Below, piece by piece: positions 11,743 to 50,781 of a DNA stretch of 64,000 nucleotides. The stretch spans positions 9,961 to 73,960 of the forward strand of contig DAOSXX010000006.1 in NCBI GenBank assembly GCA_035380685.1. The letters are read 5' to 3'. The number at the start of each line of letters is the position of its first letter. The first letter of the stretch is position 1. The translations under genes were made by a program, and so were the position numbers. This DNA is from Methanothrix sp. (lineage in GTDB: Archaea > Halobacteriota > Methanosarcinia > Methanotrichales > Methanotrichaceae). The notes under the pieces were generated by a model. It made no database searches, was not told the origin of the DNA, and saw only the letters and a program-made list of their open reading frames with translations.

Positions 11743-12355
11743 TTAATCTACACAGGTTCCACCCATATTCGTCCATCCGATGCTGGATTTACATAGATTC
11801 ATCTTTCCTAAAGTGTCCATTTGCTCCAAGAAATCGTCTAGCGCCTTGATGCGTCCCTGGAATGAGATCTTCCTCTCATGCGAGACCCCATCCTCGATGT
11901 ACGTTTCTCTGTTTACGAGAAGATGGTGCAGAATGCTGATTAGCTTTCTCGCCACCGCTACAATAGCTACATTATATCACTTCTACCCCTAATCCGAAGA
12001 AAGAACGTTTTCAGGATGGAGTTATTGAGATACGCAATGGACTGAGCTACCTGCACTATAATCCATCGAAGATGTCTAGACCCGTGCTTAGTTATGTTTC
12101 CTGTGACCAGCTTATCTGCAGATTGGTAAGCAGAAGGGATGAGTCCTGCCCACGCTGCAAGTTGTTCTGCCTTCTTAAAGTCCATGAAGTTTCCGATCTC
12201 TGCCAGAATGGTCACTGCAGCGATGAACCCAATTCAAGGAACAGACATTATGATCTTTAGGTCAGAACGTCGGTATCTGATCCGAGAGACGATCTCTTTC
12301 TCAATCTCCATGATCCTTTTCCACCAAGATTTATCAAGGGTAATGAAAATATAAA
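11743..12355 (-). mobile_element. IS110-family transposase remnant (N-terminally truncated, at least two frameshifts)
   Basis: Three collinear pieces lie in different frames: ..LDKSWWKRIMEIEKEIVSRIRYRRSDLKIIMSVP*, then IGFIAAVTILAEIGNFMDFKKAEQLAAWAGLIPSAYQSADK..GNITKHGSRHLRW..RIRGR.., then ..AIVAVARKLISILHHLLVNRETY. This is the Transposase_20 C-terminal region of IS110 enzymes. No DEDD N-domain is present. Confidence 0.8.
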
Positions 12356-29130: not shown

Positions 29131-29174
29131 CTGGCCCCATCGGATCCAACCCAAAAATCATCGAGAGGTTCAAC

Positions 29175-30454: not shown

Positions 30455-30516
30455 GGGGCCCTCTCTCCTCAAGCCACGCCTTCAATGCCACCTGGGTCAA
30501 GCCAGAAGCGTTGAAC
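30455..30516 (-). pseudogene. Relic of the 3' end of a further beta-helix paralog
   Basis: The reverse strand reads *FNASGLTQVALKAWLEERGPH.., which matches the C-terminus of paralogs 2/3 (..FDLSPVVVKAWLEERGPD*). There is a stop just upstream and no preceding ORF. Confidence 0.6.
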
Positions 30517-30641: not shown

Positions 30642-32393
30642 TCACGTCCTGTTGAGGGCTGACGTCACATCGCCGATCTCGGAGACGTTCACTGCCTCCG
30701 GTATCAAGGGGCCTCTTTTTTCCTCCGACCAGACCGGCACCATCATCGGGTTGGGATCGAAGGATACCACACCTCTCCGACCTCGGATGGCGTAGGGCAC
30801 GTCGCCAATCAGATTTCCGTCGAGATCTCTGCCCGAATAGTCTCCGTAGAAGTTGGTGAGCCACCTGTTTCCGCTGTTGTCTCTGACGTTGAAATTCTCG
30901 TTATCTGTGAAAATGTTGCTGAAAAAGAGGTTCATATCGCCCTCGTAGACGTACACCCCACCGCCGTTGTGGCGAATGGTGTTGTACATGAGCAGGTTCT
31001 GGAAGCTCAAATCAAGCAATTGAGCTCCGTAATCGCTGTTGTTCGTGATGAGATTCCGATATACCATGACATTTTCCGATCCCGATACGTGAACGCCATC
31101 AGCGCCGTTGTCGCGTATATCGTTCCCCCATAATTTGCTCCGATGGCTGTTCTTCAGTTGGACGCCGTGATCGGTGTTGTTGTGGACACAGCTTTCAGAG
31201 ATGACGACGTTATCGACGAACTCCATGTTCAGGCCGAAACGGTTATGGTGGACTTCGTTGGACTCCAGGACGTTATCGCTGGAATGAACCATGATGATGC
31301 CGTTCAGGTTGTCGTGCAGATCGTTGTTCCTGATGACGTTGGTGTTGCTGCCATCCAGGTTGAGGCCGTACCTGGTGTTCCCGTAAATATCGTTATCGGA
31401 GACCATAATGCTGCTGCTGTTGTCACGCAGGGTGATCCCGTTGTACCCGTTCTGAAATATCTCGTTATTCGAAAAGGCGCTGAAATAAGATCCGTATACG
31501 CTTATTCCGTTGATATCGTTGTCGTTAACGATGTTTCCGGAGACTGTGTTGTCGTTGCTCAATCCGACCAGCAAAAGCCCATCCTCGCCAGAGCTACGTA
31601 TCACGTTATTCAAGACGAAGTTGTTGCCGGAACGGTACAGGTTTATGCCGTTGAGACGGGAGTCGTGAATCACGTTTTCTGCCAGGAGGTTGCTGCTGGA
31701 GTCCAAAAAATAGATTCCATCTTCCGCGTTGAGGCGAATATCGTTGAGGACCACATCGTTGGCCTTCGAGCCGGCAAGGCGGATCCCCACTTCGCCGTTC
31801 TCGCCGACCTCGTTTTGAACCAGCTCGTCGTTTTGAGAGCTCTCCAGAGCTACGCCCGATCCTCCGTTATGGATTATTCGATTTCCCACCACCTGGCTCG
31901 AGTTGGCCCTGATGACGCAGACGCCGCCGTACCGGTTGTCGCGTATCAGGTTCCCGAATACGAAGTGATCCCTCGAATCGCGAAGACAAAGACCGTTACC
32001 CGAAGAGCCGGATATGGTGCAGTCCAGAATCTTGCACCCGTCGGCGAGGACCAGAACGGCCCCGGAATCGAAGCTCTTATTTTTTCCTACGACGATGCTG
32101 AACCCCTCCATAGTGACGTTCTCCGAGGTGACGATGATCAGAGGGGCCGATGAGCCGCTGCCTCCGACGACGGGGCCGCCTTCGCCCTTCAACGCGATCG
32201 ACCTGTCAACCACTATGTTTTCGGGGTAAGTTCCGTTCAGGACGACGATCACGCCGCCGGTCTCGGAGGCCTTTATCGCGTCCTGGATAGTTGTGAAGTT
32301 CCCGGAGCCGTCATCGTCTACTACGACCGTCGCGCCGGAGGTGGCGCTAGTCAGGATCAAAATCAGCATCATAGAATCTGGGCATCTGAACAT
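30642..32393 (-). CDS. Secreted NosD-like parallel beta-helix repeat protein, paralog 1
   Basis: Leader MFRCPDSMMLILILTSATSGA. Entry module VVVDDDGSGNFTTIQDAIKASETGGVIVVLNGTYPENIVVDRSIALKGE. About 18 PbH1 coils of about 23 aa. C-terminal NFYGDYSGRDLDGNLIGDVPY. The ATG at 32393 has a better SD spacing than the one at 32399. Confidence 0.92.
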   Translation of the reverse strand: MFRCPDSMMLILILTSATSGATVVVDDDGSGNFTTIQDAIKASETGGVIVVLNGTYPENIVVDRSIALKGEGGPVVGGSGSSAPLIIVTSENVTMEGFSIVVGKNKSFDSGAVLVLADGCKILDCTISGSSGNGLCLRDSRDHFVFGNLIRDNRYGGVCVIRANSSQVVGNRIIHNGGSGVALESSQNDELVQNEVGENGEVGIRLAGSKANDVVLNDIRLNAEDGIYFLDSSSNLLAENVIHDSRLNGINLYRSGNNFVLNNVIRSSGEDGLLLVGLSNDNTVSGNIVNDNDINGISVYGSYFSAFSNNEIFQNGYNGITLRDNSSSIMVSDNDIYGNTRYGLNLDGSNTNVIRNNDLHDNLNGIIMVHSSDNVLESNEVHHNRFGLNMEFVDNVVISESCVHNNTDHGVQLKNSHRSKLWGNDIRDNGADGVHVSGSENVMVYRNLITNNSDYGAQLLDLSFQNLLMYNTIRHNGGGVYVYEGDMNLFFSNIFTDNENFNVRDNSGNRWLTNFYGDYSGRDLDGNLIGDVPYAIRGRRGVVSFDPNPMMVPVWSEEKRGPLIPEAVNVSEIGDVTSALNRT

Positions 32394-32423
32394 CGGCATC
32401 TCCTCTCTAAGGGATACTTGCTA

Positions 32424-32452
32424 CTGATTAATTTAAATAGGTTGTTCCAGGG
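32424..32452 (-). promoter_or_regulatory. Putative archaeal promoter (BRE/TATA) of paralog 1, class I
   Basis: The gene strand reads CCCTGGAACAACCTATTTAAATTAATCAG. The TTTAAAT core lies about 40 nt upstream of the ATG. The block is conserved upstream of paralogs 1, 2, 6, 7 and 8. Confidence 0.6.
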
Positions 32453-32566
32453 TAGAAGAGATCAATGAGGGGGTGAGGGCCTTCGATCATCGGCAAGACC
32501 GCTCGATTATTTTTCAGAATTCGAAATTGCATGGGGACTGGGGAAGAGAGGCTGAAAGGGCCCGAC

Positions 32567-34264
32567 CTAATCGGGCCCTCTCTCTTCCAGCCAAGCTTTC
32601 ACTACGACCGGGCTTAAATCAAAGGTTACTGCCCCCCTCCGACCATGGATCGGATGAGGTTCGGTTCCGACCACTCCTCCACCGATGGCTTCTCCCGAAT
32701 AGTCGCTGTAGAAGTTGGCGATCCACCTGTTGTTATCTCCGTTGTCTCTGGCGTTGAAATTCTGATTATCGACGAAGATGTTGCCGGTTATCAGGTCGAC
32801 ATTTCCCTCGTAAATGTAGATCCCGCCTCCATCGTTCTGCCGGACGACGTTGTACATGAAAGTGGTCTGAGCGGTCTGGTCGAGCATCTGGATCCCGTAT
32901 TTGCTGTTGTTTTCGATGATGTTCCGAGACGCTACGAGATTTTCCGATCCTGATACGTGAACCCCATCCCCGCCGTTTTCGCTAATGTCGTTCTCCCAGA
33001 CCTTGCTCCGATCGCAGCTCTTGAGCTGGACGGCATGATCCGAGTTATTGTACAGATCGTTGCCTGAGATGGAAGCCGCATCGGAGAACTCCATGCTCAA
33101 CCCGAAACGGTTATCGTGAATCTCGTTGGCTTCAAGAACGCTATCGCTGGAACGGGCCACGATGACGCCGTGAAGGTTGCCGTAAACGTCGTTTCCCTCC
33201 ACGAAGTTTTTGTTGCTTTCTTCCATGTAACAACCGTACCTTTTGTTCCCATGAATCTGGTTGTCGGATATCAGATTGTTGCTGCAGTTGTCGCGCAGGG
33301 AGACCCCGTTATAATTGTTGTCGAATATCTCGTTTTGGGATAACGTGCAGAAATAAGATCCGTATACGCCAATTCCATTGATGCCGTTTTCATAAAGGCT
33401 GTTTCCTATGATTATGTTGTCGTCACTGAACCCGATGACCAGGAGCCCCTCCTCGCCTGAGCCGTTAATGACGTTATTCAGCAAGAAGTTGTTTGGCGCG
33501 TGGTCCAGATTGACACCGTTGAGGACGTTATCGCTGATCCCGTTTTCTAGTATAGCAGTGTTCATGGACCCCATGAGGTGCATGCCGTCTTCTTCGTTGA
33601 GGTGAATCCTGTTGAAGAGGGCCTGGGTGTAAAACGAGCCGACGAGCTGGACCCCCGCCTCCCCGTTCTCGCAGACCTCGTTTTGGATCAGCACGTCATA
33701 TTCGCACCGGTCCAGAGCTATGCCCCACTTTCCGTTGCTGAATATGAGGTTTCCAGCCACCTGGCTGAAGTTGGCTCCGATGAGGCAGACTCCGCCGCGC
33801 CGGTTGTCGTGGATCAGGTTCCCGGATACGAGGTGATCTCTGGAATCGCGAAGACATAGGCCGTGGCCTGACGAGTCCGATATGGTGCTGTTCAGAAGCT
33901 TGAACCCGTCGGCCAGCACCACGACGGAGCCGAAATCGGAGCTGTAGTTGAGGCCGCCGGAGAAGGTGAGCCCCTCCAGGGTGACGTCATCTGACGTTAT
34001 GGTGACTAGAGGTTCTGATGATAGGATGCTGCCTTTGACGACGGTACCGTCTTCGCCCTTCAATACGACTGATCTATCCACCACGAGGTTCTCAGGGTAA
34101 GTGCCGCTCTGAACGACTATTTCGTCGCCAGCCTCTGAGGCGTTTATTGCCTCCTGGATCGTCGTGAAGTTTCCGGCGCCGTCGTCGTCAACGACGATCA
34201 TCGCGCCGGAGGCGGCACTCGCCATGAGTAAAACCAGCATAACCGAAGCGGGACATCTGAACAT
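32567..34264 (-). CDS. Secreted NosD-like parallel beta-helix repeat protein, paralog 2 (C-terminal class A)
   Basis: Same architecture as paralog 1. Ends ..NFYSDYSGEAIGGGVVGTEPHPIHGRRGAVTFDLSPVVVKAWLEERGPD*. The GTG of the longest ORF (34273) lies inside the SD GGTGAT, so the ATG at 34264 was chosen. Confidence 0.92.
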   Translation of the reverse strand: MFRCPASVMLVLLMASAASGAMIVVDDDGAGNFTTIQEAINASEAGDEIVVQSGTYPENLVVDRSVVLKGEDGTVVKGSILSSEPLVTITSDDVTLEGLTFSGGLNYSSDFGSVVVLADGFKLLNSTISDSSGHGLCLRDSRDHLVSGNLIHDNRRGGVCLIGANFSQVAGNLIFSNGKWGIALDRCEYDVLIQNEVCENGEAGVQLVGSFYTQALFNRIHLNEEDGMHLMGSMNTAILENGISDNVLNGVNLDHAPNNFLLNNVINGSGEEGLLVIGFSDDNIIIGNSLYENGINGIGVYGSYFCTLSQNEIFDNNYNGVSLRDNCSNNLISDNQIHGNKRYGCYMEESNKNFVEGNDVYGNLHGVIVARSSDSVLEANEIHDNRFGLSMEFSDAASISGNDLYNNSDHAVQLKSCDRSKVWENDISENGGDGVHVSGSENLVASRNIIENNSKYGIQMLDQTAQTTFMYNVVRQNDGGGIYIYEGNVDLITGNIFVDNQNFNARDNGDNNRWIANFYSDYSGEAIGGGVVGTEPHPIHGRRGAVTFDLSPVVVKAWLEERGPD

Positions 34265-34294
34265 CGGAATCACCTATCTGATGCATACGTGATC

Positions 34295-34323
34295 CTGATT
34301 AATTTAAATAGGTTCTTCCAGGG
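34295..34323 (-). promoter_or_regulatory. Putative promoter of paralog 2, class I
   Basis: CCCTGGAAGAACCTATTTAAATTAATCAG on the gene strand, about 40 nt upstream of the ATG at 34264. Confidence 0.6.
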
Positions 34324-34409
34324 CGAAGGAGAGCGGTGAGGGGCAACCGGTGTGTCCTGTCCCTGGATACACCGTGAGATGAGGCGGAAGAGGTTGAGAG
34401 GCCCCCGAG

Positions 34410-36107
34410 CTAGTCGGGCCCTCTCTCCTCCAGCCAGGCTCTCACTACTACGGGGTTAAGATCGAGGTTTTGGGCGCCCCTTCGCCCCCGGATCACGTAA
34501 GGCTCGGACCCGACCACGCCTAAGCTGATCGCTTCTCCCGAATAATCGTCGTAGAAGTTGGAGAGCCAATTGTTTATCTGTCCGTTGTCTCTGCCATTGA
34601 AATTCCGGTTATCTTCGAAGATGTTGCCCGTGATCAGGTTGATATGCCCCTCATAAATGTACATCCCGCCAGCGCCATTATGCTGAATAATGTTGTACAT
34701 GAAAAGGGTCTGGGTCGTATCGTCCAGCACCTGGATTCCGTATTTGCTGTTGTTTCCTATCAGGTTTCGAGATACCACAAGATATCCTGATCCCGATACG
34801 TGAACCCCATCCCCGCCGTTTTTGGTGATATAGTTCTCCCAGACGTTGCTCCGATCGCAGCTTGTAAGCTGGACGCCGTGATCAGAGTTGTTGAATACGA
34901 AGTTGTTCGCCATGGATACGCTATCGACAAACTCCATGCTCAATCCGAAACGGTTGTCATGGATCTCGTTATCCACCAGGACGTTATCGGCAGAATGGGC
35001 CATGATGACGCCGTGAAGGTTGTCGTGGACGTCGTTTCCCTCCATGAAGTTTTTGTTGCTGTCGTCCAGGTAAAAACCGTACCTTTTGTTTCCGCTGATC
35101 TCGTTGTCGGATATCAGAATGCTGCTGCTGTTGTCGCGAAGAGAGATCCCGTTGTATTCGTTGTCGAATATCTTGTTTTGGGTCAACTTGCTGAAATAAG
35201 ATCCGTACACACCGACCCCATTGATGCCGTTTTTGGAGAGGTTGTTTCCTGTGATTATGTTGCTGTCACTGGAATCGATGACCAAAAGCCCCTCCTCTCC
35301 GGAGCCCTGGATCACGTTGTTAACCAAGAAGTTGATGGGTGCGCGTTCCAGACTGACGCCGTTGAGGCCGTTATCTCGGATCTCATTTTCTACGATCGCG
35401 GAGTTCCTGGATTCTATGAGGTGTATGCCGTCTTCTTCGTTGAGGCTAATCCTGTTGTAAGCCACTTCGGTGTAAAGCGAGCTTGAGAGCTGAAATCCGA
35501 CTTCGCCGTTATCACGAATATCATTTTGAGCCAGTGTGTTAAACAAAGTGCCCTCAAGAGCTATGCCCCACTTTCCGTTCTCGAAGATCTGGTTTCCCAC
35601 CAACTGGCTGAAGTTGGCACCGGGGCCAAAGACTCCGTTGCGCTGGTTGTCGCGGATCAGGTTCCCCGATACGAGGTGATCCCTGGAGTCGCGAAGACAG
35701 AGGCCGTTGCCCGAAGAGGCCGATATGGTGTTGTTCAGAAGCTTGCACCCGTCGGCCAGCACCAGAACTGCACCGGAATCGAAATTTTCGTTGAGGCTGC
35801 CGGAGAAGCGGAACCCATCCAGGGTGACGTTCTCTGAGGTTATGGTGACGAGAGGTTCCGATGATAGGCTGCTGCCCTTGACGACCGGACCTTTTTCGCC
35901 CTTCAATACGACTGATCTATCCACCACGAGGTTCTCTGAGTACGTGCCGCTCTGGACGACTATTACGTCGCCGATCTCTGAGGCGTTTATCGCCTCCTGG
36001 ATCTTCGTGAAGTCTCCTCCACCCTCGTCGTCGACGACGATCGTCGCACCGGAGGCGGCGCTAGCCAAGATCAAAATCAGCGTCATACAGGCGGGGCATC
36101 TGAACAT
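34410..36107 (-). CDS. Secreted NosD-like parallel beta-helix repeat protein, paralog 3 (class A)
   Basis: MFRCPACMTLILILASAASGA... Ends ..GEAISLGVVGSEPYVIRGRRGAQNLDLNPVVVRAWLEERGPD*. SD AGGTGAT. Confidence 0.92.
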   Translation of the reverse strand: MFRCPACMTLILILASAASGATIVVDDEGGGDFTKIQEAINASEIGDVIVVQSGTYSENLVVDRSVVLKGEKGPVVKGSSLSSEPLVTITSENVTLDGFRFSGSLNENFDSGAVLVLADGCKLLNNTISASSGNGLCLRDSRDHLVSGNLIRDNQRNGVFGPGANFSQLVGNQIFENGKWGIALEGTLFNTLAQNDIRDNGEVGFQLSSSLYTEVAYNRISLNEEDGIHLIESRNSAIVENEIRDNGLNGVSLERAPINFLVNNVIQGSGEEGLLVIDSSDSNIITGNNLSKNGINGVGVYGSYFSKLTQNKIFDNEYNGISLRDNSSSILISDNEISGNKRYGFYLDDSNKNFMEGNDVHDNLHGVIMAHSADNVLVDNEIHDNRFGLSMEFVDSVSMANNFVFNNSDHGVQLTSCDRSNVWENYITKNGGDGVHVSGSGYLVVSRNLIGNNSKYGIQVLDDTTQTLFMYNIIQHNGAGGMYIYEGHINLITGNIFEDNRNFNGRDNGQINNWLSNFYDDYSGEAISLGVVGSEPYVIRGRRGAQNLDLNPVVVRAWLEERGPD

Positions 36108-36133
36108 CTGAAATCACCTTTATCAGGCTTTTT

Positions 36134-36160
36134 CCTCATAAATTTAAATACGTTATTGCA
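36134..36160 (-). promoter_or_regulatory. Putative promoter of paralog 3, class II
   Basis: TGCAATAACGTATTTAAATTTATGAGG on the gene strand. TATA core at 36143-36149. Confidence 0.55.
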
Positions 36161-36290
36161 AGACAAAACTCTCTCTGGAGGAAAGGACGACAATTACGGT
36201 CGGTTCTATCCGTCCCTTCCTCGTGAGGGCCGAAGTGGACAAGACTTCGATGGAATCTGGCCCATAAAAATATATGGAGGGGCCCTCCGG

Positions 36291-37979
36291 CTAGGAAGGA
36301 CCCCTCACATCCAGCCATTCCATCGCCATGAAGGGCCTGCTATCGATAGATGCCACTCCCCTGCTGCCCAGGATCACGTACGGCTCGTCCCCGACCTCGT
36401 CGCCATTAAGATCCTCTCCCGAATAGTCGCCGTAGAAGTTGCCAAGCCACTTGTTTCCTCCGTTGTCCCTGGCGTTGAAGTTCTGGTTTTCGGCGATGGT
36501 GTTGCCGGTGACCAGGTTCATCTCGCCCTCATAGATGTAAATACCTCCACCTCCGTTCTGCCGGACGGTGTTGTACATTATCAGCATCTGAGCGGACTGA
36601 TCCAGCACCTGGACGCCGTAATCGCTGTTGTTCAAGATGTCGTTCTGTGACATTATGGTATGCTCTGAACCCAGCACGTGAACGCCATCCTTCCCGTTTT
36701 TGTATATCTCGTTGTTATATATGCCGCTCCCGATGCAGCTTTTCAGCTGGATTCCGTCATCGGTGTTGTTGTGGATGCCGTTTCCAGAGATCATGACGGT
36801 ATTGACGAACTCCAGATTCAGGCCGAATCGGTTATGGTGTATCTCGTTTGAGACGAGATTGTTATCGTCGCAGCGGGACATTATGATGCCGTTCAGGTTT
36901 TCGTAGACGTTGTTATTCTGGATGAAGTTGGAGCCTGAGTCCTGAAGGTCAAAGCCGTATCTCACGTTCTGATAAACGTCGTTATCTGACACAACAACCC
37001 TGCTCGTCCCATCGCGCAGGGCGATCCCGTTGTACCCGTTTTGAAAGATCTCGTTATCGGATATCGTGCTGAAATTGGATCCGTACATCCCGATCCCGTC
37101 GATCCCGCTATCACTGACGACATTTTTGGAGATGATGTTCTCGCTTCCGGGTCCAACGACGATCACCCCATCTTCGCCTGAACCGACGATCGAGTTGTCT
37201 ATTACGAAGTTGCTGCTGGAACTTTGCAGATTGACGCCGTTGAGATCGTTATCGTGAACCTCATTTACTATCACGACGTTGCTTTTGGAGTTCAAAATGT
37301 GAATCCCGTCTTCTGAGTTCGAGCTTATCCTGTTCGCCGTGATCTCGTTGCCGATCGAACTTATGACGTGGACCCCTACCTCGCCATTTTCGCGGACTTC
37401 GTTTGACGTCAGGCCGTTGTTCAGGCAGCCGTCAAGGGTTATGCCCCAATTTCCGTTGCTAAATACCTGATTTTCTGTCACCTGGCTGGAACTGACGCCA
37501 TGCAAGCAGATGCCTCCGTACCGGTTGTCAAAGATCAGGTTCCCGGATATGAGGTGGTCCTTGGACTCACTTAGACATAGGCCGTGGCATGACGAGCTCG
37601 ATATGGTGCAGTTCAGAAGCCTGCAACCGTCCGCCAGAATCAAAACCTCTCCGGCGTTGAAGCTGTCGTTTTTGCAGCCGGAGAAGACGAGCCCCTCCAG
37701 GATGACGTTATCTGAAGTTACGGTGACAAAAGGATCTGAAAGGTCGGACCCTTTGACTAGAGGGTTATCTTCGCCCTTCAAGACGACGGGTTTATCGATC
37801 ACGAGGTTCTCGTCGTAAGTTCCGTTCCGGATGACGATCAAGCCTCCAGGCTCAGAGGCGTTTATCGCTTCCTGGATTTTCAAAAAATCTCCTAAGCCTT
37901 CGTCATCGACGACGATAGCACCCGCAGCAGCGTTTGTCAGGATCAAAATCAGCATCATCGAAGTTGGGAATCTGGGCAA
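36291..37979 (-). CDS. Secreted NosD-like parallel beta-helix repeat protein, paralog 4 (class B)
   Basis: TTG start (M)PRFPTSMMLILILTNAAAGA, preceded by GAGGTGG. Ends ..GEDLNGDEVGDEPYVILGSRGVASIDSRPFMAMEWLDVRGPS*. Confidence 0.88.
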   Translation of the reverse strand: MPRFPTSMMLILILTNAAAGAIVVDDEGLGDFLKIQEAINASEPGGLIVIRNGTYDENLVIDKPVVLKGEDNPLVKGSDLSDPFVTVTSDNVILEGLVFSGCKNDSFNAGEVLILADGCRLLNCTISSSSCHGLCLSESKDHLISGNLIFDNRYGGICLHGVSSSQVTENQVFSNGNWGITLDGCLNNGLTSNEVRENGEVGVHVISSIGNEITANRISSNSEDGIHILNSKSNVVIVNEVHDNDLNGVNLQSSSSNFVIDNSIVGSGEDGVIVVGPGSENIISKNVVSDSGIDGIGMYGSNFSTISDNEIFQNGYNGIALRDGTSRVVVSDNDVYQNVRYGFDLQDSGSNFIQNNNVYENLNGIIMSRCDDNNLVSNEIHHNRFGLNLEFVNTVMISGNGIHNNTDDGIQLKSCIGSGIYNNEIYKNGKDGVHVLGSEHTIMSQNDILNNSDYGVQVLDQSAQMLIMYNTVRQNGGGGIYIYEGEMNLVTGNTIAENQNFNARDNGGNKWLGNFYGDYSGEDLNGDEVGDEPYVILGSRGVASIDSRPFMAMEWLDVRGPS

Positions 37980-38012
37980 TCCGAACCACCTCTCTCAGCC
38001 ACATAAGTTTTC

Positions 38013-38037
38013 CTTAATTAAATATGTAATTCCATAG
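38013..38037 (-). promoter_or_regulatory. Putative promoter of paralog 4 (variant)
   Basis: CTATGGAATTACATATTTAATTAAGG on the gene strand, about 40 nt upstream of the TTG at 37979. Confidence 0.45.
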
Positions 38038-38265
38038 GATGATGAAACCTGAGCGGACGATCAGCGGGCAATCTCCAGGCGGGTGTGGGGGCACAGAGCA
38101 GCCGCAATCCACATCTCGCCTGAAGCTGTGCCGCCTGACAGAAAGGGGCCGGATCCTCGCAAAGCTCCGAAGCCCGCCCGGCCCCCTCACCGGCTGAATG
38201 CCGTACCAAAGGCGTTCGTTTCGTCCCGGCCCTCAGGAACGGTAGTTCAGGCACGACAGACTCGC

Positions 38266-39993
38266 CTACCGTATCGACATCCAAATCCGCTCCCTAGCCT
38301 GATAAGGACGTATCTCTTCAAGCCTAGCCGCTGAGACGAAGGGCTTGGGATCGAAGGATGTCATGCCTCTCCTGCCGAATACGACGTAAGGCTCATCACC
38401 GAAATCGTCGCCGTTTTGGTCCACACCCACATAGTCACCGTAGAAGTTGCCGAGCCACTTGTTCTCTCCCGTGTTGTCCCTGACGTTGAACTTCTGGTTA
38501 TCGGAGATCATATTGCCCGTGATCAGGTTCATCGCGCCATCGGACACGTAAAACCCACCGCCTCCGTTCTGCCGGACAACGTTGTACATGAGAGCGTTCA
38601 ATGTAGCCCCATCAATCAGCTGGACGCCGTAATCGCTGTTATTCTGGATATAGTTCCCAAATATCGCAGAATGTACCGACTCTAATACGTGAATCCCGTC
38701 CTTCCCGTTGTCGCGGATATCATTGACCCAGATCCTGCTCTCGTCACATCTCTTCATCTGGACACCGTCGTTGGTGTTGTTGTGGATCTCGTTCTCGGAT
38801 AAAACGACGGTATCTACGTACTCCAGGCTGAGGCCAAAGTAGTTGTGGCATATTTCATTGAAGATTATGGAGTTATTTCCACAACGGACCATTACGATGC
38901 CGTTCAAGTTGTCATGCACTCGATTGGCCTTGATGAAGTTGGAGTTGCTCTCCTCAATGTAAAAACCATATCTGACGTTTCCATACACTTCGTTGTCAGT
39001 GACCAAAATCACGCCGCTGTCGTCTCTGAGCGAGAATCCGTTATTCCCGTTGAGAGATGCCTCGTTGTTGATCAGCGTGCTGAAATAAGATCCGTATACT
39101 CCGACGCCGTCGATGCCATTCTCGCTGATCCGGTTATTGGCGATCAAGTTGTCGTTGCTGCTTTTGATGACTAGGATCCCCTCTTCTCCGGAACCTTGGA
39201 CCTGGTTACCTATAACGAAGTTGGAGCTGGACTGGTACAGATTTATGCCGTTGAGTCCGTTTTCACGAATCTCGTTGTCCATCAGAGCGTTGGTTGTGGA
39301 GTCCATCAGGAATATTCCGTCTTCCCCGTTGAGTCGGATCTCATTTGAATCGATCTCGCTGGTAGTGGTGTTGATCATGTTGATCCCCACCTCGCCGTTC
39401 TCGTAAAGGCTGTTTGACGTCAGAGCATCATACACGCATCCCGAGAGCGTTATGCCGCATTTTCTATTGCCGAAGACTACGTTTCCGAGCAGCTGGCTGA
39501 AGTTGGACCCGGAAAGACAGATGCCGCAGTAGCCGTTGTCGTGGACGATATTTCCGGATATCAGGTCGTTTTCGGAGGAAAGCAGATGCAGGCCGAAACC
39601 CGACGAGCTGCTTATTGTATTGTTCAGTATCTTGCATCCGTCAGACGCGACGAGAACCGCGCCGGAGTCAAGGCTCGTGTCGATGCAGCCAGTGATCGTG
39701 AACCCTTCAAGGACGACGCCATCTGCAGTTATCTTGATCAGAGGGCTTGAAAGGCCAGAACCGTTGACGACGGGATCGCCTTCGCCTTTCAGGGAAACTG
39801 ATCTGTCCACCACGACGTTTTCGGCGTAAGTGCCGCTCTGGACGACTATTTCGTCGCCGGTCTCCGAGGCGTTTATCGCGTCCTGGATTTTCGTGAAGTT
39901 TCCGGCACCATCGACATCGACGACGACCATCGAGCCGGAGGCTGCACTCGCTAGCATCAGAATCAGCATCGTAGAAGCGGAGAATCTGAGCAT
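38266..39993 (-). CDS. Secreted NosD-like parallel beta-helix repeat protein, paralog 5 (class C)
   Basis: MLRFSASTMLILMLASAASGS... Ends ..GVDQNGDDFGDEPYVVFGRRGMTSFDPKPFVSAARLEEIRPYQ...*. SD GAGGTGAT. Confidence 0.92.
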   Translation of the reverse strand: MLRFSASTMLILMLASAASGSMVVVDVDGAGNFTKIQDAINASETGDEIVVQSGTYAENVVVDRSVSLKGEGDPVVNGSGLSSPLIKITADGVVLEGFTITGCIDTSLDSGAVLVASDGCKILNNTISSSSGFGLHLLSSENDLISGNIVHDNGYCGICLSGSNFSQLLGNVVFGNRKCGITLSGCVYDALTSNSLYENGEVGINMINTTTSEIDSNEIRLNGEDGIFLMDSTTNALMDNEIRENGLNGINLYQSSSNFVIGNQVQGSGEEGILVIKSSNDNLIANNRISENGIDGVGVYGSYFSTLINNEASLNGNNGFSLRDDSGVILVTDNEVYGNVRYGFYIEESNSNFIKANRVHDNLNGIVMVRCGNNSIIFNEICHNYFGLSLEYVDTVVLSENEIHNNTNDGVQMKRCDESRIWVNDIRDNGKDGIHVLESVHSAIFGNYIQNNSDYGVQLIDGATLNALMYNVVRQNGGGGFYVSDGAMNLITGNMISDNQKFNVRDNTGENKWLGNFYGDYVGVDQNGDDFGDEPYVVFGRRGMTSFDPKPFVSAARLEEIRPYQARERIWMSIR

Positions 39994-40023
39994 GTGAAAT
40001 CACCTCAACATATATAGTTACTC

Positions 40024-40049
40024 ATCATTAATTAAAATATGTTATTGCG
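40024..40049 (-). promoter_or_regulatory. Putative promoter of paralog 5, class II
   Basis: CGCAATAACATATTTTAATTAATGAT on the gene strand. It shares GCAATAAC.TATTT.AATT.ATGA with paralog 3. Confidence 0.55.
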
Positions 40050-40201
40050 GGTCGGTGGATATCCCGGGGGTCACAAGCTGCCCATCGTGCTCTCCGAGCA
40101 GGGACCTGGATTCGCACAACCGGGCAGGACTCTGCATTTGTCCTGTGGGAATCCAGGGTCTGTGGGGTCGCTGAAGGGGACTGAGGGCTGAAAGGCCCCG
40201 A

Positions 40202-41890
40202 TCAGTCGGGCCCGCCCCCCTCCAGCAACGCCCTCACCGCCACCGGGTGTAGATCGACGGCTACCGCCCCCCTTCGGCCCTGGATTGCATAGGGCTCGGC
40301 CCCGATCCCCCTGGTGCTCTCTGCCGAGTAGTCGCTGAAGAAGTTGGCGAACCACCAGTTGGTTTTCCCGTTGTCTCTGGCGTTGAAGTTCTGGTTATCT
40401 TCGAAGATGTTGCTGGTGATCCGGTTGGTCTCCCCCTCGTAAATGTAAATCCCGCCGCCACCGTTCTGCTGGACGAAGTTGTACATGAAAAGGGCCAGAG
40501 TGGTCTGATCCAGCACCTGGATTCCGTATTTGCTGTTGTTCGCGATCAGGTTCCTAGATACCGCGAGATTTTCTGATCCCGATACGTGAACCCCGTCGCC
40601 GCCGTTGTCGTGAATATCGTTCTCCCAGACCTTGCTCTGATCGCAGCTTGTAAGCTGGACGGCGTGATCTTTATTGTTGTGGACTTCGTTATTTGAGATG
40701 GAGACGCCATCGACGAACTCCATGCTGAACCCGAAACGGTTATCGTGGATCTTGTTGCTCTCCAGGACGTTGTCAGAGGAGCGGACCATGATGACGCCGT
40801 GAAGGTTGCCGTAGACGTCGTTGCCCTCCACGAAGTTTTTGTTGCTGTCTTCCAGGTAAAACCCGTACCGCTTGTTCTCGCTAATCTCGTTATCGGATAT
40901 CAGAATGCTGCTGCTGTTGTCGCGCAGAGATATACCGTTGTAACCGTTGTTGAATATCTCGTTTTGGGATAAAGTGCTGAAATAAGATCCGTATATGCCA
41001 ATTCCGTTGAGGCCGTTATCGCTAAGGATGTTCTCCATGATGATGTTGTTGTCGCTGAATCCTGTGACCAGAAGCCCTTCGTCTCCAGAGTTGTTGATTA
41101 TGTTCTTTATCAATAAGTTGTGCCTCGCCCGATCCAAGCTGACCCCATTTAGGCCGTTATCGCGGATCTCATTTTCCGCGATCGCGTTGTTTCCGGATTC
41201 TATGAGGTAGATGCCGTCTTCCCGGTTCAGGTTGACGCTGTTATAAACCAAGTCGATGTGGTTCGATCCGACTAGCTGGACTCCCACCTCCCCGTTCTCG
41301 CGAACCACGTTTATCGTCGCCTCGTCGCGCTCACAGCTCTCCAGAAGCATGCCCCACTTTCCGTTGTGGAACGCTTGGTTTCCAACCATCTGGCTGGAAT
41401 TTGCCCTGATGGCGCAGATGCCGCCGTATCCGTTGTCGTGGACTACGTTACCGTATACGAAGTGATTCCTGGAATCCCGAAGATAGAGGCCGTTGCCCGA
41501 CGAGCCGGATATGGTGTTGTTCAGAACCTTGGACCCGTCCGCCAGCACCAGAACCGCGCCGGCGTCGAAGCTGCCGTTGAGGCTGCCGGCGAATTTAAAA
41601 CCATCCAGGATGACGTTCTTCGAAGTTATGGTGATCAGAGGGACCGATGAGCCGCTGCCTTTGACGACGGGATCGCCTTCGCCCTTCAATACGACGGATC
41701 TATCCACCACGAGGTTCTCGGCGTAAGTTCCGTTGAGGACGACTATTTCGTCGCCGGTCTCTGAAGCGTTTATGGCATCCTGGATCGTCGTGAAATTCCC
41801 GGCGCCGTCGTCGTCGACGACGACCATCGCGCCGGAGGCGGAGCTCGCCATGATCAATATCAGAATCGCAGAGGCGGGGCACCTGAACAT
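40202..41890 (-). CDS. Secreted NosD-like parallel beta-helix repeat protein, paralog 6 (class A)
   Basis: MFRCPASAILILIMASSASGA... Ends ..SAESTRGIGAEPYAIQGRRGAVAVDLHPVAVRALLEGGGPD*. SD GGTGAT overlaps the GTG of the longest ORF. Confidence 0.92.
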   Translation of the reverse strand: MFRCPASAILILIMASSASGAMVVVDDDGAGNFTTIQDAINASETGDEIVVLNGTYAENLVVDRSVVLKGEGDPVVKGSGSSVPLITITSKNVILDGFKFAGSLNGSFDAGAVLVLADGSKVLNNTISGSSGNGLYLRDSRNHFVYGNVVHDNGYGGICAIRANSSQMVGNQAFHNGKWGMLLESCERDEATINVVRENGEVGVQLVGSNHIDLVYNSVNLNREDGIYLIESGNNAIAENEIRDNGLNGVSLDRARHNLLIKNIINNSGDEGLLVTGFSDNNIIMENILSDNGLNGIGIYGSYFSTLSQNEIFNNGYNGISLRDNSSSILISDNEISENKRYGFYLEDSNKNFVEGNDVYGNLHGVIMVRSSDNVLESNKIHDNRFGFSMEFVDGVSISNNEVHNNKDHAVQLTSCDQSKVWENDIHDNGGDGVHVSGSENLAVSRNLIANNSKYGIQVLDQTTLALFMYNFVQQNGGGGIYIYEGETNRITSNIFEDNQNFNARDNGKTNWWFANFFSDYSAESTRGIGAEPYAIQGRRGAVAVDLHPVAVRALLEGGGPD

Positions 41891-42185
41891 CGGAATCACC
41901 TATTTCATGTATACTTAATCCTGATTAATTTAAATAGGTTATTCCAGGGTCAGAGGAAATATGTGAGGAGAAGAGGGAAGGCCGATATTCTTGGGGCGAC
42001 CTTCGTCGCCGTCCGGAGGACTCCGGGGCTGAGATCTCCGACGCGAACCTGGAAATCTCGCCATGGCGCGGTTAACCCCCATCCGCTCGTCGAAGCCGAC
42101 ATGACCCGTGCCACGATGAGCTTCGATCTGAAGGGATGAGAGTGGTCCAAAAAACGGAGCTAAACTCTCCCACCCTCCAGCCATT
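41613..42185 (-). repeat. Segmental duplicate, copy 1 (paralog 6 5' CDS, promoter/leader, and paralog 7 3' end)
   Basis: Aligns with 43571-44145 at a constant offset of 1958 bp. Very high identity across the first 280 bp or so of CDS and about 240 bp of upstream sequence. Confidence 0.85.
41921..41949 (-). promoter_or_regulatory. Putative promoter of paralog 6, class I
   Basis: CCCTGGAATAACCTATTTAAATTAATCAG on the gene strand. Confidence 0.6.
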
Positions 42186-43848
42186 CCGGCGTCACGAAGG
42201 GTTTGGGGTCGACGGACATGGCCCCCCGACGCCCATAGATCAGATGGGGTTCATCGCCAACCTCGTCTCCGTCGAGATCTTTGCCCGAATAGTCGCTGTA
42301 GAAGTTGCCCAGCCATACATTTCCGCCGTTGTCTCTGGCGTTGAATTTCTGGTTCTCAGAGAGGATGTTGCCGGACATCATGTTCATCTGAGCTTCATAA
42401 AGATAAATGCCTCCGGCACCGTTGCCAAGGATTGAGTTATACATGAACAGGTTCTGTGCGCTAAAATCCATTAATTGGATGCCGTATCCGTCATTGTTCC
42501 ATATGTCGTTGTTGGAGACGGTCGTGTTTTCCGATCCTGATACGTGAATACCGTCCCTGCCGTTTCCGTTTATTTCGTTCGCCCAGATCTTGCTCTGATC
42601 GCAGCGAACCACCTGCACGCCGGCATCGGTGTTATTATAAATGCCATTCTCGGATATGACGATCTCGTTTATGAACTCCAGGCTTAAGCCGAAACGATTG
42701 CTGTAGACCTCATTAGACACCAGGGTGTTGTTGTAGGAGCGCGCCATCACGACCCCGTTCATGTTTTCGTAGATCTCATTATTCTGAAGGAAGTTTGAGC
42801 TGCTGTCCTCCAAGTTAAGACCGTACCTAGCATTTCCGTGGACCTTGTTGTTGTAAACAAGAGAGCTGCCGGTGCCGTCCCGCAAGGAGATGCCGTTGTA
42901 ACTGTTGTTGAAGAGATCGTTATTCGAGATGGTGGTAACATGACATCCGTATATCCCGATGCCGTTGATACCATTATCGGAAATTATATTTTTGGAGATC
43001 ACGTTGTTGTCGCTGGATTCAACCAGCATCAGCCCCACTTCGCCGCAGTTATGTATCACGTTGCCCACTAAGAAGACTCTGCTGGTTCGCTGCAGGTCTA
43101 TGCCGTTGAGGCCGTTCTCATGAATCTCATTTTCTATAAATATGATGTAATTGGAGTTCATCATGTGGATTCCGTCTTCCGCATTGTCGTAAATCTTGTT
43201 TCCGACAAACATGTTGCGTATCGAGCTGTGATCGTGAATCCCCACCTCCCCGTTCCCATGGACGTCATTTGCGGTCAGCTCGTTGAACTGGCAATCTTCC
43301 AAATCCACGCCCCATTTTCTATTTCTGAATATTTCATTTCCGACCATCCTGCTGAAATTGGCCCCTATGACACAGACGCCTCCTTCCAAGTTGTCGTAGA
43401 TCACGTTCCCGGATACGAAGTGATCCCTGGAATCGCGGAGACAGAGGCCGTGACCTGGTGCCCGATATACTGTGTTGTTCAAAAACCGGCACCCGTCAGC
43501 TAGCACCAGCACAGCATCATAATTCAACCCGTCGTTTATGCTGCCGGAGAAGGTGAGCCCTTCCAGTGTTACGTTCTTCGAAGTTACGGTGATCAGAGGG
43601 CCCGAAAGGCCCGAGCCTTTGACGACGGGATCGCCTTCGCCCTTCAATACAATCGACCTGCCCACCACGAGGTTCTCGGGGTAAGTTCCGTTGAGAACGA
43701 CTATTTCGTCGCCGGTCTCTGAAGCGTTTATGGCTTCCTGGATCGTCGTGAAATTCCCGGCGCCGTCGTCGTCGACGACGACCATCGCGCCGGAAACAAC
43801 GCTCGCCATGATCAATATCAGAATCGCAGAGGCGGGGCATCTGAACAT
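42160..43848 (-). CDS. Secreted NosD-like parallel beta-helix repeat protein, paralog 7 (class B)
   Basis: The first 90 aa or so are nearly identical to paralog 6. Ends ..GKDLDGDEVGDEPHLIYGRRGAMSVDPKPFVTPEWLEGGRV*. Confidence 0.92.
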   Translation of the reverse strand: MFRCPASAILILIMASVVSGAMVVVDDDGAGNFTTIQEAINASETGDEIVVLNGTYPENLVVGRSIVLKGEGDPVVKGSGLSGPLITVTSKNVTLEGLTFSGSINDGLNYDAVLVLADGCRFLNNTVYRAPGHGLCLRDSRDHFVSGNVIYDNLEGGVCVIGANFSRMVGNEIFRNRKWGVDLEDCQFNELTANDVHGNGEVGIHDHSSIRNMFVGNKIYDNAEDGIHMMNSNYIIFIENEIHENGLNGIDLQRTSRVFLVGNVIHNCGEVGLMLVESSDNNVISKNIISDNGINGIGIYGCHVTTISNNDLFNNSYNGISLRDGTGSSLVYNNKVHGNARYGLNLEDSSSNFLQNNEIYENMNGVVMARSYNNTLVSNEVYSNRFGLSLEFINEIVISENGIYNNTDAGVQVVRCDQSKIWANEINGNGRDGIHVSGSENTTVSNNDIWNNDGYGIQLMDFSAQNLFMYNSILGNGAGGIYLYEAQMNMMSGNILSENQKFNARDNGGNVWLGNFYSDYSGKDLDGDEVGDEPHLIYGRRGAMSVDPKPFVTPEWLEGGRV

Positions 43849-44145
43849 CGGAATCACCTATCTGATGTATACTTGATCCTGATTAATTTAAATAGGTTAT
43901 TCCAGGGTCAGAGGAAAGATGTGAGGAAGAAGGAGGAAGGCCGATCTTCTTGGGGCGGCCTTCGCCGCCGTCCGGAGAGCTCCAGGGCCGAGATCTCCGA
44001 CGCGAGCCTGGAAATCTCGCCATGACACGGTTAACCCATCCGCTCGTCGAAGCCGACGTGACCCACGCCCCGATGAAGTGACGACCTGGAGGGATGAGAG
44101 GGATCCCAAACCGAAGCTAACCTCTCCCACACTCCAGCCCCTAAG
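43571..44145 (-). repeat. Segmental duplicate, copy 2 (paralog 7 5' CDS, promoter/leader, and a decayed class-B 3' end relic)
   Basis: See copy 1. The distal end (about 44118-44145) reads ..LECGRG* on the gene strand, a decayed copy of the paralog 7 terminus ..WLEGGRV*. Confidence 0.8.
43879..43907 (-). promoter_or_regulatory. Putative promoter of paralog 7, class I
   Basis: Identical 29-mer to the paralog 6 promoter block. Confidence 0.6.
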
Positions 44146-44247
44146 ACGAACCGTGTTCATCGGTCCTGAACCCATCTCACCGGCTATCGCAGGTACCTCC
44201 GGAAACGTTAAAGGCGCTCGTGGTTCAGGAGCGACAATTACGGCCAG

Positions 44248-45966
44248 CTAAACCCAGCTGGTGCCCTCCAACTCGGCGGGGCTTATCTCTTCCAGCGTGG
44301 CCGTCGAGATGATCGGCCTCGGATCGAAAGATTCCGCTCCCCTCCGCCCGTAGATGGCGTAAGGCTCGTCACCGAAACTGTCACCGTTGAGATCCTCTCC
44401 CGAATAGTCGCCGTAGAAGTTTCCAAGCCACTTATTCCCCACCATATTGTCCCTGACGTTGAACCTCTGGTTTTCTGCGATTATGTTGCCGGTGATGAGG
44501 TTTATATCGCCTTCATAGAAATAAAATCCGCCGCCAACATTGTTCCGGACGTTGTTGTACATGAAGGTATTCAGAGAGGACCAGTCCAACACCTGGACGC
44601 CGTAATCGCTATTGTTCAGAATGGTGTTCCCGAATATTACGGTATGTAGCGACTCCGATATGTGAATTCCGTCATTTCCGTTTTCGAGTATATCGTTCTC
44701 CCAGATCCTGCTCTCGTCGCATCTCTTCATCTGGAAGCCGTCGTTGGAGTTGTTGTAGATCTCGTTTTCGGATATGACGAAGCTTCTGACGAACTCCAGA
44801 CTGAGGCCATAATAGTTCTGGGATATTTCGTTGAGGGTGACATGGATATTTTCACAGCGGACCATTATGATGCCGTTCAAGTTGTCATGCACACGATTGG
44901 CTTTGATGAAGTTGGAGCCGCTGTCCTCAAGGCCGATACCGTACCTGAAGTTTCCGTAAACATCATTATTTGCGACCATCGTCCCGCCGCTGTAATCTCG
45001 AGAGTATATCCCGTTATCTTCGTTGAAAGATACTCTGTTATTGATTATCGTGCTGGAATAAGACCCGTATATCCCGATCCCGTTGATGCCATTCTCGCTG
45101 ATCAAGTTGCTGGAGATCAAGTTGTCGTCGGCCCGCTCGACGATGAGGATCCCCTCTTCTCCCGAGCCTTGGACCTCGTTACCTATAACGAAGTTGGCGG
45201 TGGAATGATACAGGTTTATGCCGTTGTGTTTGTTTTCGCGGATCTCGTTATCGATCAAAGCGTTGTTCATGGAGTTCTTCAGGAATATTCCATCCTCCTC
45301 ATTGAAGCGGATCTCGTTGAGACGGATCTCTCCGGTCGTGGAATTGACCACGTTGATCCCGACCTCGCCGTTCTCGTAGACCCGGTTTGCCGTCAGAGCA
45401 ACGTAATCGCAGCCGAAGAGCGTTATGCCGCACTTTCTATTGCCGAACGCCTCGTTTCCGAGCAGCTGGCTGAAGTTGGACCCGATAAGGCAGATGCCGC
45501 AGTGTCCGTTGTCGCGCGCGATATTTCCGGATACGATGTTGTTATCGGAATTTAGCAGAGAGAGGCCGTAGCCTGATGAGGAGCGTATGGTGTTGTTCAG
45601 AATCTTGCATTCGTCCGACTCGACAAGGACCGCGCTGGTGTCGAGGCCTTCGTCGATGCATCCATAAACGGTGAACCCGTCAAGGACGACGCCATCCGCA
45701 GCTATCCTGATCGGAGGGCTTGAAAGATCGCAGCCATCGACGACGGGGCCGTTTTCGCCCTTCAATACGATCGATCTGTCCACCACGACATTTTCGGGAT
45801 AAGTGCCGTTTTTGACGACTATTTCGTCGCCGATCTCGGAGGCGTTTATCGCATCCTGGATTTTCGTGAAGTTCCCGGCGCCGTCGTCGTCGACTACGAT
45901 TATCGAGCCAGAGGCTGCGCTCGCCAGGATCAAAATCAGCATCATCGAAACGGGGCATCTGAACAT
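44248..45966 (-). CDS. Secreted NosD-like parallel beta-helix repeat protein, paralog 8 (class C)
   Basis: MFRCPVSMMLILILASAASGS from the ATG at 45966 (SD GGTGAT). The longest ORF (to 46125) would overlap the upstream gene. Ends ..GEDLNGDSFGDEPYAIYGRRGAESFDPRPIISTATLEEISPAE...*. Confidence 0.92.
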   Translation of the reverse strand: MFRCPVSMMLILILASAASGSIIVVDDDGAGNFTKIQDAINASEIGDEIVVKNGTYPENVVVDRSIVLKGENGPVVDGCDLSSPPIRIAADGVVLDGFTVYGCIDEGLDTSAVLVESDECKILNNTIRSSSGYGLSLLNSDNNIVSGNIARDNGHCGICLIGSNFSQLLGNEAFGNRKCGITLFGCDYVALTANRVYENGEVGINVVNSTTGEIRLNEIRFNEEDGIFLKNSMNNALIDNEIRENKHNGINLYHSTANFVIGNEVQGSGEEGILIVERADDNLISSNLISENGINGIGIYGSYSSTIINNRVSFNEDNGIYSRDYSGGTMVANNDVYGNFRYGIGLEDSGSNFIKANRVHDNLNGIIMVRCENIHVTLNEISQNYYGLSLEFVRSFVISENEIYNNSNDGFQMKRCDESRIWENDILENGNDGIHISESLHTVIFGNTILNNSDYGVQVLDWSSLNTFMYNNVRNNVGGGFYFYEGDINLITGNIIAENQRFNVRDNMVGNKWLGNFYGDYSGEDLNGDSFGDEPYAIYGRRGAESFDPRPIISTATLEEISPAELEGTSWV

Positions 45967-45994
45967 CGGAATCACCAATGACGTATTCTTAATC

Positions 45995-46022
45995 CTGATT
46001 AAGTTAAATAGGTTGTTCCGGA
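45995..46022 (-). promoter_or_regulatory. Putative promoter of paralog 8, class I variant, overlapping the stop of the upstream giant gene
   Basis: CTCCGGAACAACCTATTTAACTTAATCAG on the gene strand. The TAA stop of the giant ORF (45999-46001) lies inside it. Confidence 0.5.
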
Positions 46023-50753: not shown

Positions 50754-50781
50754 GCTTACTCGTTCCAAATTGTTCCAATCA

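Follow-up and report, generated by a model that had tools for sequence, protein, structure and literature searches.

An array of eight tandem genes for secreted right-handed beta-helix proteins was analysed in a stretch of 64,000 nucleotides of archaeal DNA, contig DAOSXX010000006.1, which is called the window below and carries the organism label 'Methanothrix sp.' at NCBI. The host is a Methanothrix/Methanocrinis archaeon of the Methanotrichaceae. The array arose from one ancestral gene by lineage-specific birth-and-death expansion under purifying selection, and it is a new, unusually large member of a known archaeal surface-protein class, not a new kind of system. Judged from the sequences, the eight proteins may make up an adhesin-like or ligand-binding set in the cell envelope or the extracellular matrix. 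This is tentatively taken as the best single reading due to the regular coils without cleft loops, the lack of known catalytic motifs and the linkage to a gene with DUF11 repeats. The copies were numbered c1-c8 and placed by window positions, with the gene starts set at homologous start codons (aa, amino acids):

30642-32393, minus strand: c1, 583 aa, last in the array, its C-terminal tail extended; E-values of 2.7e-63 with Pfam Beta_helix and 8.4e-51 with NosD; 81% identical orthologue in M. harundinacea UBA1 (L006)
32567-34264, minus strand: c2, 565 aa, named 'pectinesterase family protein' at NCBI
34410-36107, minus strand: c3, 565 aa, the copy modelled with AlphaFold2
36291-37979, minus strand: c4, 562 aa, TTG start; orthologues of 79% (L007) and 90% (L090) identity
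38266-39993, minus strand: c5, 575 aa, sister of c8 (69%)
40202-41890, minus strand: c6, 562 aa, in a clade with c2 and c3
42160-43848, minus strand: c7, 562 aa; orthologue of 85% identity in L008
44248-45966, minus strand: c8, 572 aa, the first gene of the array, with its ATG at 45966

The eight consecutive minus-strand genes (30642-45966) encode proteins of 562-583 aa, and their starts are spaced by 1.84-2.12 kb in the list of open reading frames (ORFs), in agreement with the first-pass annotation of this DNA. Its boundaries were corrected in two respects. The intergenic gaps were found to be 145-399 nt long, one of them being 399 nt, instead of 145-290, and the array ends at the homologous ATG of c8 and not at 46022; the ORF finder had set the start of c8 at 46125. 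The 'MIPM' GTG starts of the ORF finder fall within the Shine-Dalgarno sequence. The pairwise protein identity among the eight copies was 51-71%, which indicates that c1-c8 are old paralogs and not collapsed or expanded repeats. The same eight-gene array was detected in at least three independent assemblies and a partial array in two more; thus, the suspicion of an assembly artefact could be dismissed.

The hydrophobic maximum of the Sec-type leader was located at residues 6-9 in c1-c8. Beyond residue 40, no 19-residue window of the eight proteins exceeded a Kyte-Doolittle value of 1.54, which means that there is no C-terminal transmembrane segment, as had been claimed. No further Pfam domain was found in c1-c8 beyond the beta-helix matches, and there was no membrane-anchor or cell-wall-binding domain. 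The mature proteins are acidic, with masses of ~58-60.6 kDa (about 59 kDa) and isoelectric points of 4.3-4.6. The N-x-S/T sequons, earlier described as very frequent and as a sign of glycosylated proteins, amounted to 7-10 per protein, which equals the expectation from shuffled sequences of the same composition (z -0.9 to +0.8); what is conserved is their positions alone. Long plus-strand ORFs of 228-336 aa lie antisense inside the beta-helix genes (31143-32153, 34800-35486 and 44662-45555); the repetitive, biased codon composition most likely gives rise to them, and they are probably not genes.

Pfam PF13229 (Beta_helix) and PF05048 (NosD) matched all eight proteins, with E-values of 1e-49 to 1e-85 and 1e-47 to 1e-68, respectively. 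In the NCBIfam scan of c1, c3, c5 and c8, 6-11 parallel beta-helix repeats of TIGR03804 were detected per protein. The AlphaFold2 model of c3 reached a predicted local distance difference test score (pLDDT) of 93.1 and a predicted template-modelling score (pTM) of 0.88. In this model, 18 regular coils, each 22-24 residues long, wind into a right-handed beta-helix whose two end caps are intact. The coils are very regular and lack the long loops that usually build enzyme clefts. Foldseek searches with this model returned beta-helix proteins alone (identity up to 18%, template-modelling (TM) scores 0.2-0.68). The array proteins therefore belong to the right-handed parallel beta-helix, pectin-lyase-like group (PbH1, CASH-type), and the earlier assignment to about 18 coils of a NosD/PbH1 right-handed beta-helix was borne out by both the profile searches and the predicted beta-solenoid. 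The C-terminal D.NGD-type motif, assumed to be shared by all copies, was only partly so: D.[ND]GD is intact in c4, c5, c7 and c8, variant in c1, and lost in c2, c3 and c6.

The strong Pfam NosD matches raise the question of the true NosD proteins, which act with an ABC transporter in metal-centre maturation. The array proteins share with NosD of the N2O-reductase maturation machinery NosDFY(L) (7O0Y, 7OSF) the fold and the N-terminal cap motif G.G.F.TIQ.AI..A..GD.I.V..G.Y.E, and their C-terminal N.W..NFY.DY.G.D..GD..GD.PY resembles the NosD C-terminus (N.W..Y.DY.G.D..GD..GD.PY). However, the NosD family model TIGR04247 gave only 133-148 bits against the cut-off of 300, the array proteins exceed NosD by ~130 residues, and c2, c3 and c6 have a degenerate C-terminal motif. 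In addition, no nosZ, nosF, nosY, nosL or ABC-transporter genes were found in Pfam scans of the larger ORFs flanking the array; these scans showed DUF11, pentapeptide, AAA, dapAB, thiDN and others. A role as true NosD accessory proteins is therefore very improbable. The same holds for the array being an artefact or a set of pseudogenes, since several assemblies show all eight ORFs uninterrupted, and purifying selection acts on them. The name 'pectinesterase' of c2 was rejected as well. The pectinesterase model PF01095 reached 17-23 bits (23.4 with c2) against the cut-off of 27 and covered only the N-terminal cap (residues ~23-100), and the CE8 motifs DF[IV]FG and GT[VI]DF were absent in all eight copies.

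When the coils were unrolled by register, structural ladders were seen at Asn registers 6 and 11 and at Gly register 15. The same mapping located a conserved polar stripe, common to all paralogs, in the C-terminal half of the proteins, on the strand that follows the Gly. It is formed by R323/D324, R341-Y342-G343, E391, Q412, H435, Q458/D461, Y481 and F501-N502/R504-D505-N506, and it is retained even in relatives at 42-45% identity. The mean paralog identity at the outward positions after the conserved Gly was 0.72 in the C-terminal coils compared to 0.38 in the N-terminal coils. At the other outward registers, which lie on another face, it was 0.27-0.30. From this pattern of conservation, we read the stripe as one shared docking or active surface, the remaining surfaces having diversified.

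An active surface would correspond to paralogs that are carbohydrate-active enzymes (epimerases, lyases or hydrolases) remodelling an extracellular polysaccharide or glycoprotein matrix on differing substrates, with the stripe as the active site. This is the chief alternative to the adhesin-like reading and a strong one, though the less likely of the two. The best sequence-profile and fold matches of the array proteins are AlgG/AlgE (4NK6, 2PYG) and pectin-lyase-fold enzymes, with an 'N..YG' turn in the same coil register. The profile matches to AlgG/AlgE in the PDB had E-values of 2e-11 to 5e-6, the NCBIfam model epimerase_AlgG matched down to 6e-18, and the Foldseek neighbours were mostly epimerases, lyases, glycosidases and phage depolymerases. 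The invariant R, D, E, Q, H and Y of the stripe would suit catalysis, and secretion without an anchor fits a diffusible enzyme. In contrast, the scores are repeat-level and far under the family cut-offs, the identity is at most 18% and the TM-scores are 0.2-0.55. AlgG/AlgE mannuronan C5-epimerase was rejected at 30-65 bits against a cut-off of 700. No catalytic motifs of known beta-helix enzymes (DPH[DE] and the GH28, PL1 and CE8 signatures) were found in any of the eight copies, and the catalytic APHD of AlgG aligns with a non-conserved 'GvcliG'. The coils of the c3 model are devoid of cleft-forming loops. Genes for polysaccharide synthesis or export were not found among the scanned neighbouring genes.

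In the adhesin-like reading, transcription of each copy would start at its own TATA-type promoter and translation would rely on a strong Shine-Dalgarno sequence; both motifs were observed. The proteins would be exported via Sec, the leader would be cut after ...SGA, and they would fold into a rod of ~20 coils and ~10 nm, a length estimated for the model from the usual rise of ~4.8 A per coil. With its shared C-terminal stripe, the rod may dock on an envelope ligand or partner common to all copies, which would be a glycan or a protein of the sheath or matrix. Elsewhere the surface has diverged, also on the stripe's own face in the N-terminal half, and may provide paralog-specific binding surfaces. 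The ancestral gene was probably part of a family-wide envelope module together with a secreted pentapeptide-repeat protein and a 227-aa Cys-His-Asp protein. Several points weigh against this reading. There is no anchor or known cell-wall-binding domain to explain the retention at the surface. The polar stripe with its invariant His, Glu, Asp and Arg would equally suit an active site. The closest sequence-level PDB relatives include enzymes (AlgG, E 2e-11) besides NosD. The stripe was mapped by coil register and not by coordinates, and the register slips in 24-residue coils.

The history of the array was followed with a family defined by more than 450 bits with a profile built from the eight copies, in a survey of one genome per species and a metagenome scan. 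The family is confined to Methanotrichaceae, save one contig in a metagenome-assembled genome (MAG) labelled Pirellulales, and the next-best proteins stayed below 215 bits. About 45 loci with sequences of this family were found. The beta-helix gene on that contig (CAZSXM010000126.1, L011) has a score identical to that of the second copy of Ca. Methanocrinis alkalitolerans (L010), and the contig is probably archaeal (Methanocrinis) and mis-binned into the bacterial MAG. Seven of the eight copies have one-to-one orthologues of 73-85% identity in M. harundinacea UBA1 or in the MAG UBA9297, which places the duplications before the split from these lineages. The ratio of nonsynonymous to synonymous substitution rates (dN/dS) of the orthologue pairs was 0.18-0.36, indicating purifying, though not strong, selection. 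The paralog content and order differ between the related loci. A single conversion tract was seen, between c6 and c7 (about -271 to +290), with a nucleotide identity of 90-93%, while the two proteins are 58% identical overall. Traces of a ninth copy were also found: the 15-codon relic LTQVALKAWLEERGP matches LSPVVVKAWLEERGP of c2 with a tblastn E-value of 1.4e-5 and with 80% identity over 40 nt in blastn (search space of 297 nt). The two features are:

41601-42159 (c6 side) and ~43559-44110 (c7 side), minus strand: gene-conversion or recombination tract, spanning the upstream region and the start of the coding sequence (~290 nt)
30456-30500, possibly to 30553, minus strand: relic of the 3' coding end of a ninth copy, between c1 and the pentapeptide gene

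The ~260 nt upstream of c6 (41891-42159) and of c7 (43849-44110) are ~90% identical and GC-rich and contain two short hairpins, one of them with a compensatory double change (GGCGAC-GAAG-GTCGCC in comparison with GGCGGC-GAAG-GCCGCC). The folding of the conserved 220 nt upstream of c6 was not convincing (z = -1.9), and no Rfam match was obtained in the whole window. The region could be a conversion tract alone or a small structured element. A viral origin of the array was rejected: no relative of its proteins was found in the viral contigs of IMG/VR, and the fold matches in BFVD were generic, with identities of at most 18%.

A TATA-like box, TATTTAAAT or a one-base variant of it, precedes each of the eight genes; the last T of the box lies 34-37 nt upstream of the start codon. 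The Shine-Dalgarno sequence GGTGAT (GGAGAT in c1, GGTGGT in c4) follows, 4-5 nt before the start codon. The TTTAAAT-type box and the GGTGAT element noticed earlier are thus present in all copies, the latter in variant form in c1 and c4. The positions of the boxes are:

32421-32448, minus strand: promoter-like box of c1, with the TATA-like part TATTTAAAT at 32431-32439
34302-34310, minus strand: TATA-like box of c2, TATTTAAAT
36142-36150, minus strand: TATA-like box of c3, TATTTAAAT
38016-38024, minus strand: TATA-like box of c4, TATTTAATT
40031-40039, minus strand: TATA-like box of c5, TATTTTAAT
41928-41936, minus strand: TATA-like box of c6, TATTTAAAT
43886-43894, minus strand: TATA-like box of c7, TATTTAAAT
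46002-46010, minus strand: TATA-like box of c8, TATTTAACT

TATTTAAWT occurs 7 times in the window, compared to 0.4 expected occurrences, and the 28-mer promoter box occurs 5 times, compared to 0 expected. A longer box (AACAACATATTTAAATTAATCAGGATTAAGTAT...GGTGATTC) is kept upstream of the orthologues in M. harundinacea UBA1 despite an orthologue dS (synonymous divergence) of 0.3-0.7, which indicates that it is under selection. The box of c8 overlaps the final codons of the DUF11 gene that lies upstream and has its stop at 45999. In this overlap (45999-46019, minus strand), the box encodes the terminal codons and the stop of the DUF11 gene (...GTTYLT*), so that coding sequence and a conserved TATA/BRE-like element (BRE, B recognition element) overlap.

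These promoter-like motifs make independent initiation of each copy plausible. The former description of the copies as independently transcribable is supported to the extent that each has its own box, and it stays an expectation from motifs; an oligo-T run of at least five was found in only 2 of the 7 internal gaps, and transcriptional read-through is therefore possible. The near-identity of the boxes favours co-regulation over alternate expression, and c1-c8 are, on this evidence, most likely co-regulated. The proposal of alternately expressed variants was consequently not upheld. In a wider form, the paralogs would be alternately expressed surface variants or receptor decoys against viruses or episymbionts. 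Such a role would fit the differences in copy number and composition between close lineages, the moderate purifying selection, the own promoter of each gene and the one conversion tract. It is unlikely nonetheless: besides the common regulation suggested by the promoters, no invertase, recombinase or switchable repeat was found in the array, the stable one-to-one orthologues of the old paralogs are unlike rapid variant shuffling, and relatives in viral contigs were lacking.

The genomic surroundings connect the array to other secreted repeat proteins. The relevant genes are the following:

28447-29130, plus strand: P227, a 227-aa Methanotrichaceae-specific protein, the third member of the module
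29115-30344, plus strand: pentapeptide-repeat protein that has a hydrophobic N-terminal leader and is encoded convergently to the array; matched by NCBIfam pentapeptide families
45999-50861, minus strand: DUF11/CLIPPER-repeat adhesin-like protein of 1620 aa, immediately upstream of c8
50782-52239, minus strand: DUF11/PKD gene, a further surface-protein gene
20248-21261, minus strand: DUF11/PKD gene, a further surface-protein gene

The additional DUF11/PKD genes make this region of the window rich in secreted repeat proteins. The linkage of a DUF11 gene to beta-helix genes recurs in M. harundinacea UBA1 (L007), in line with the first-pass annotation, which had placed the array directly downstream of an adhesin operon. 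The flanks of the array are occupied by housekeeping genes: dapAB, thiDN, cofC, F420 ligase, AAA ATPase, uvrB and gatD.

A conserved module of beta-helix, pentapeptide-repeat and 227-aa proteins, in which the beta-helix gene has 1-8 copies and the array is the expanded member, had been overlooked. The arrangement of n beta-helix genes, a convergent pentapeptide gene and a P227 gene was found in Ca. Methanocrinis alkalitolerans (L010), in another Methanotrichaceae MAG and on 11 metagenome contigs, the pentapeptide partner being recorded at L010, L012 and the 11 metagenome loci. The beta-helix/pentapeptide pairing alone occurs on 2 more metagenome contigs. On two large contigs (3.0 and 2.3 Mb) of other Methanothrix genomes, the same slot beside the AAA gene, in one case near dapAB, holds a P227 gene, two pentapeptide genes and 1-2 longer NosD-like genes on one strand. 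The copy numbers of the beta-helix gene were:

n = 1: L105, L108, L109, L117
n = 2: L095, L102, L103, L107
n = 3: L093
n = 4: L088
n at least 5, limited by the contig: L090, L091
n = 8: the window

With 8 copies, the array is the largest among the related loci examined. The shared slot and the varying n indicate that a family-wide module has one of its components multiplied here further than at any other locus seen. At L010 (2005-9571), the order is beta-helix, pentapeptide, beta-helix, pentapeptide and then a 234-aa protein; the pair is duplicated there, and in contrast to the window the pentapeptide gene was duplicated along with the beta-helix gene. The literature searched made no mention of the three-gene module or of the way its copy number changes.

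The P227 family comprises 177 clusters, all from Methanotrichaceae. The 120 matches listed were all at least 56% identical to the query, and no Pfam domain was found among them. The protein has an invariant Cys142, His174 and Asp192 and an N-terminal helix or anchor, and P227 always adjoins pentapeptide-repeat genes. Its model was of moderate quality (pLDDT 73.5, reached by one of five models) and places the Cys at a helix N-terminus and the His and Asp in the following two strands. Nothing significant was obtained with Foldseek (best E 0.039), the weak matches being mostly papain/transglutaminase-like proteases; a papain/transglutaminase-like identity is thus suggested by the invariant Cys/His/Asp and their secondary-structure context.

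The module also allows structural explanations. The trio of P227, pentapeptide solenoids and NosD-like beta-helix proteins could be a Methanotrichaceae-specific envelope-assembly system which builds or anchors plugs, cross-walls or thin fibrils; this is a speculative, improbable reading. In it, the beta-helix paralogs would serve interchangeably as structural or adaptor subunits, and P227 would process or cross-link them, by analogy with LapG/transglutaminase-like proteases. Somewhat less likely still, an envelope element peculiar to the Methanotrichaceae would be built from the paralogs themselves together with the pentapeptide protein, and P227 would process or cross-link them; such an element could be spacer plugs, cross-walls, a matrix layer or thin fibrils. 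This would agree with the occupation of one and the same chromosomal slot by the three-gene module in Methanothrix as well as Methanocrinis, with the family-restricted P227 and with the beta-solenoid rod shape of both partners. Furthermore, the plug proteins are not yet identified (PMC6242892), and M. alkalitolerans bears thin appendages of unexplained nature (PMC10598746). The opposite is indicated by the absence of any sign of polymerisation in the model with both caps intact, by the conservation of 42-45%, which structural subunits usually exceed within a genus, by the range of 1-8 copies, which would not be expected for such subunits, and by the non-significant fold match of P227.

Other described envelope proteins from these organisms are the sheath (SH) proteins and MspA, which are likewise secreted and multi-copy. 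The core of the SH proteins consists of two six-stranded antiparallel sheets, which are amyloid-like and hoop-forming (PMC11576556). Compared by description, this fold differs from the parallel beta-helix of the model, and the sheath-protein role considered earlier was rejected. The reported mass of MspA (ABK14853.1), 60.9 kDa, is close to the mature mass of ~59 kDa determined here. MspA is reported to be a protein without homologues (PMC6242892), whereas the array proteins match widespread Pfam families; this comparison was also made by description only. A match to the Methanosarcina disaggregatase was rejected too, as no Disaggr_repeat or Disaggr_assoc Pfam match (E up to 0.01) was found in any of the eight proteins.

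The nearest likeness was found with the NosD-domain cell surface proteins of methanogens, which combine Pfam NosD and Beta_helix matches, secretion and several copies per genome without a nos operon. In M. thermoacetophila, NosD-domain 'cell surface proteins' are multi-copy and expressed at 2-5 times the median (PMC10470525, Table 3). The 'cell surface proteins with copper-binding domain' include Mthe_0322, 0787, 1273, 1510, 0046 and 1626, and NosD-annotated genes are also described for Methanosarcina (PMC10470525; PMC12904285). The array differs from these by its eight tandem same-strand copies, the shared promoter box, the tie to the pentapeptide and P227 genes, and the restriction of the subfamily (above 450 bits) to Methanotrichaceae, with an expanded clade in the M. 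harundinacea group.

The combination of beta-helix and Ig-like, DUF11-annotated domains defines the archaeal adhesin-like proteins (ALPs; bioRxiv 10.64898/2026.08.03.742440). With the 'RBH-only' ALPs of Methanobacteriales, the array proteins share a beta-helix that is often annotated as NosD, Ig-like DUF11 proteins as neighbours or partners, and a species-specific expansion (same source). The array proteins are secreted beta-helix proteins, and the adjacent genes carry DUF11 Ig-like repeats. However, they are without a membrane anchor, a pseudomurein- or other cell-wall-binding domain or an Ig-like domain in the same polypeptide, they come from another archaeal order, and the similarity is at the repeat level only.

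Tandem multi-copy NosD-like surface genes are common in archaea. The unusual scale attributed to the array thus holds for its copy number among the related loci, but not for the tandem arrangement as such.

Methanothrix and Methanocrinis are major acetate-consuming methane producers and form the structural backbone of anaerobic granules. Their filament envelope is partly understood: the sheath proteins are known, while the plug, matrix and adhesion components are not. The locus supplies candidate envelope genes, namely those of the eight secreted beta-helix proteins, the pentapeptide-repeat protein and the family-specific Cys-His-Asp protein, and its conserved promoter motif can be used for finding co-regulated envelope genes. 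The array is also a clear case of birth-and-death evolution among archaeal surface genes, and with its analysis two misleading automatic names, 'NosD' and 'pectinesterase', were corrected.

No tRNAs were found in the window. Two low-GC islands, at 1-4324 (38%) and about 10000-12000 (43%), stand out from the 52-61% elsewhere in the window. The first contains two large minus-strand ORFs (498-2249 and 2279-4324) with no Pfam match, and the second a DUF2341 protein (10089-11585). Both islands may have been horizontally acquired.

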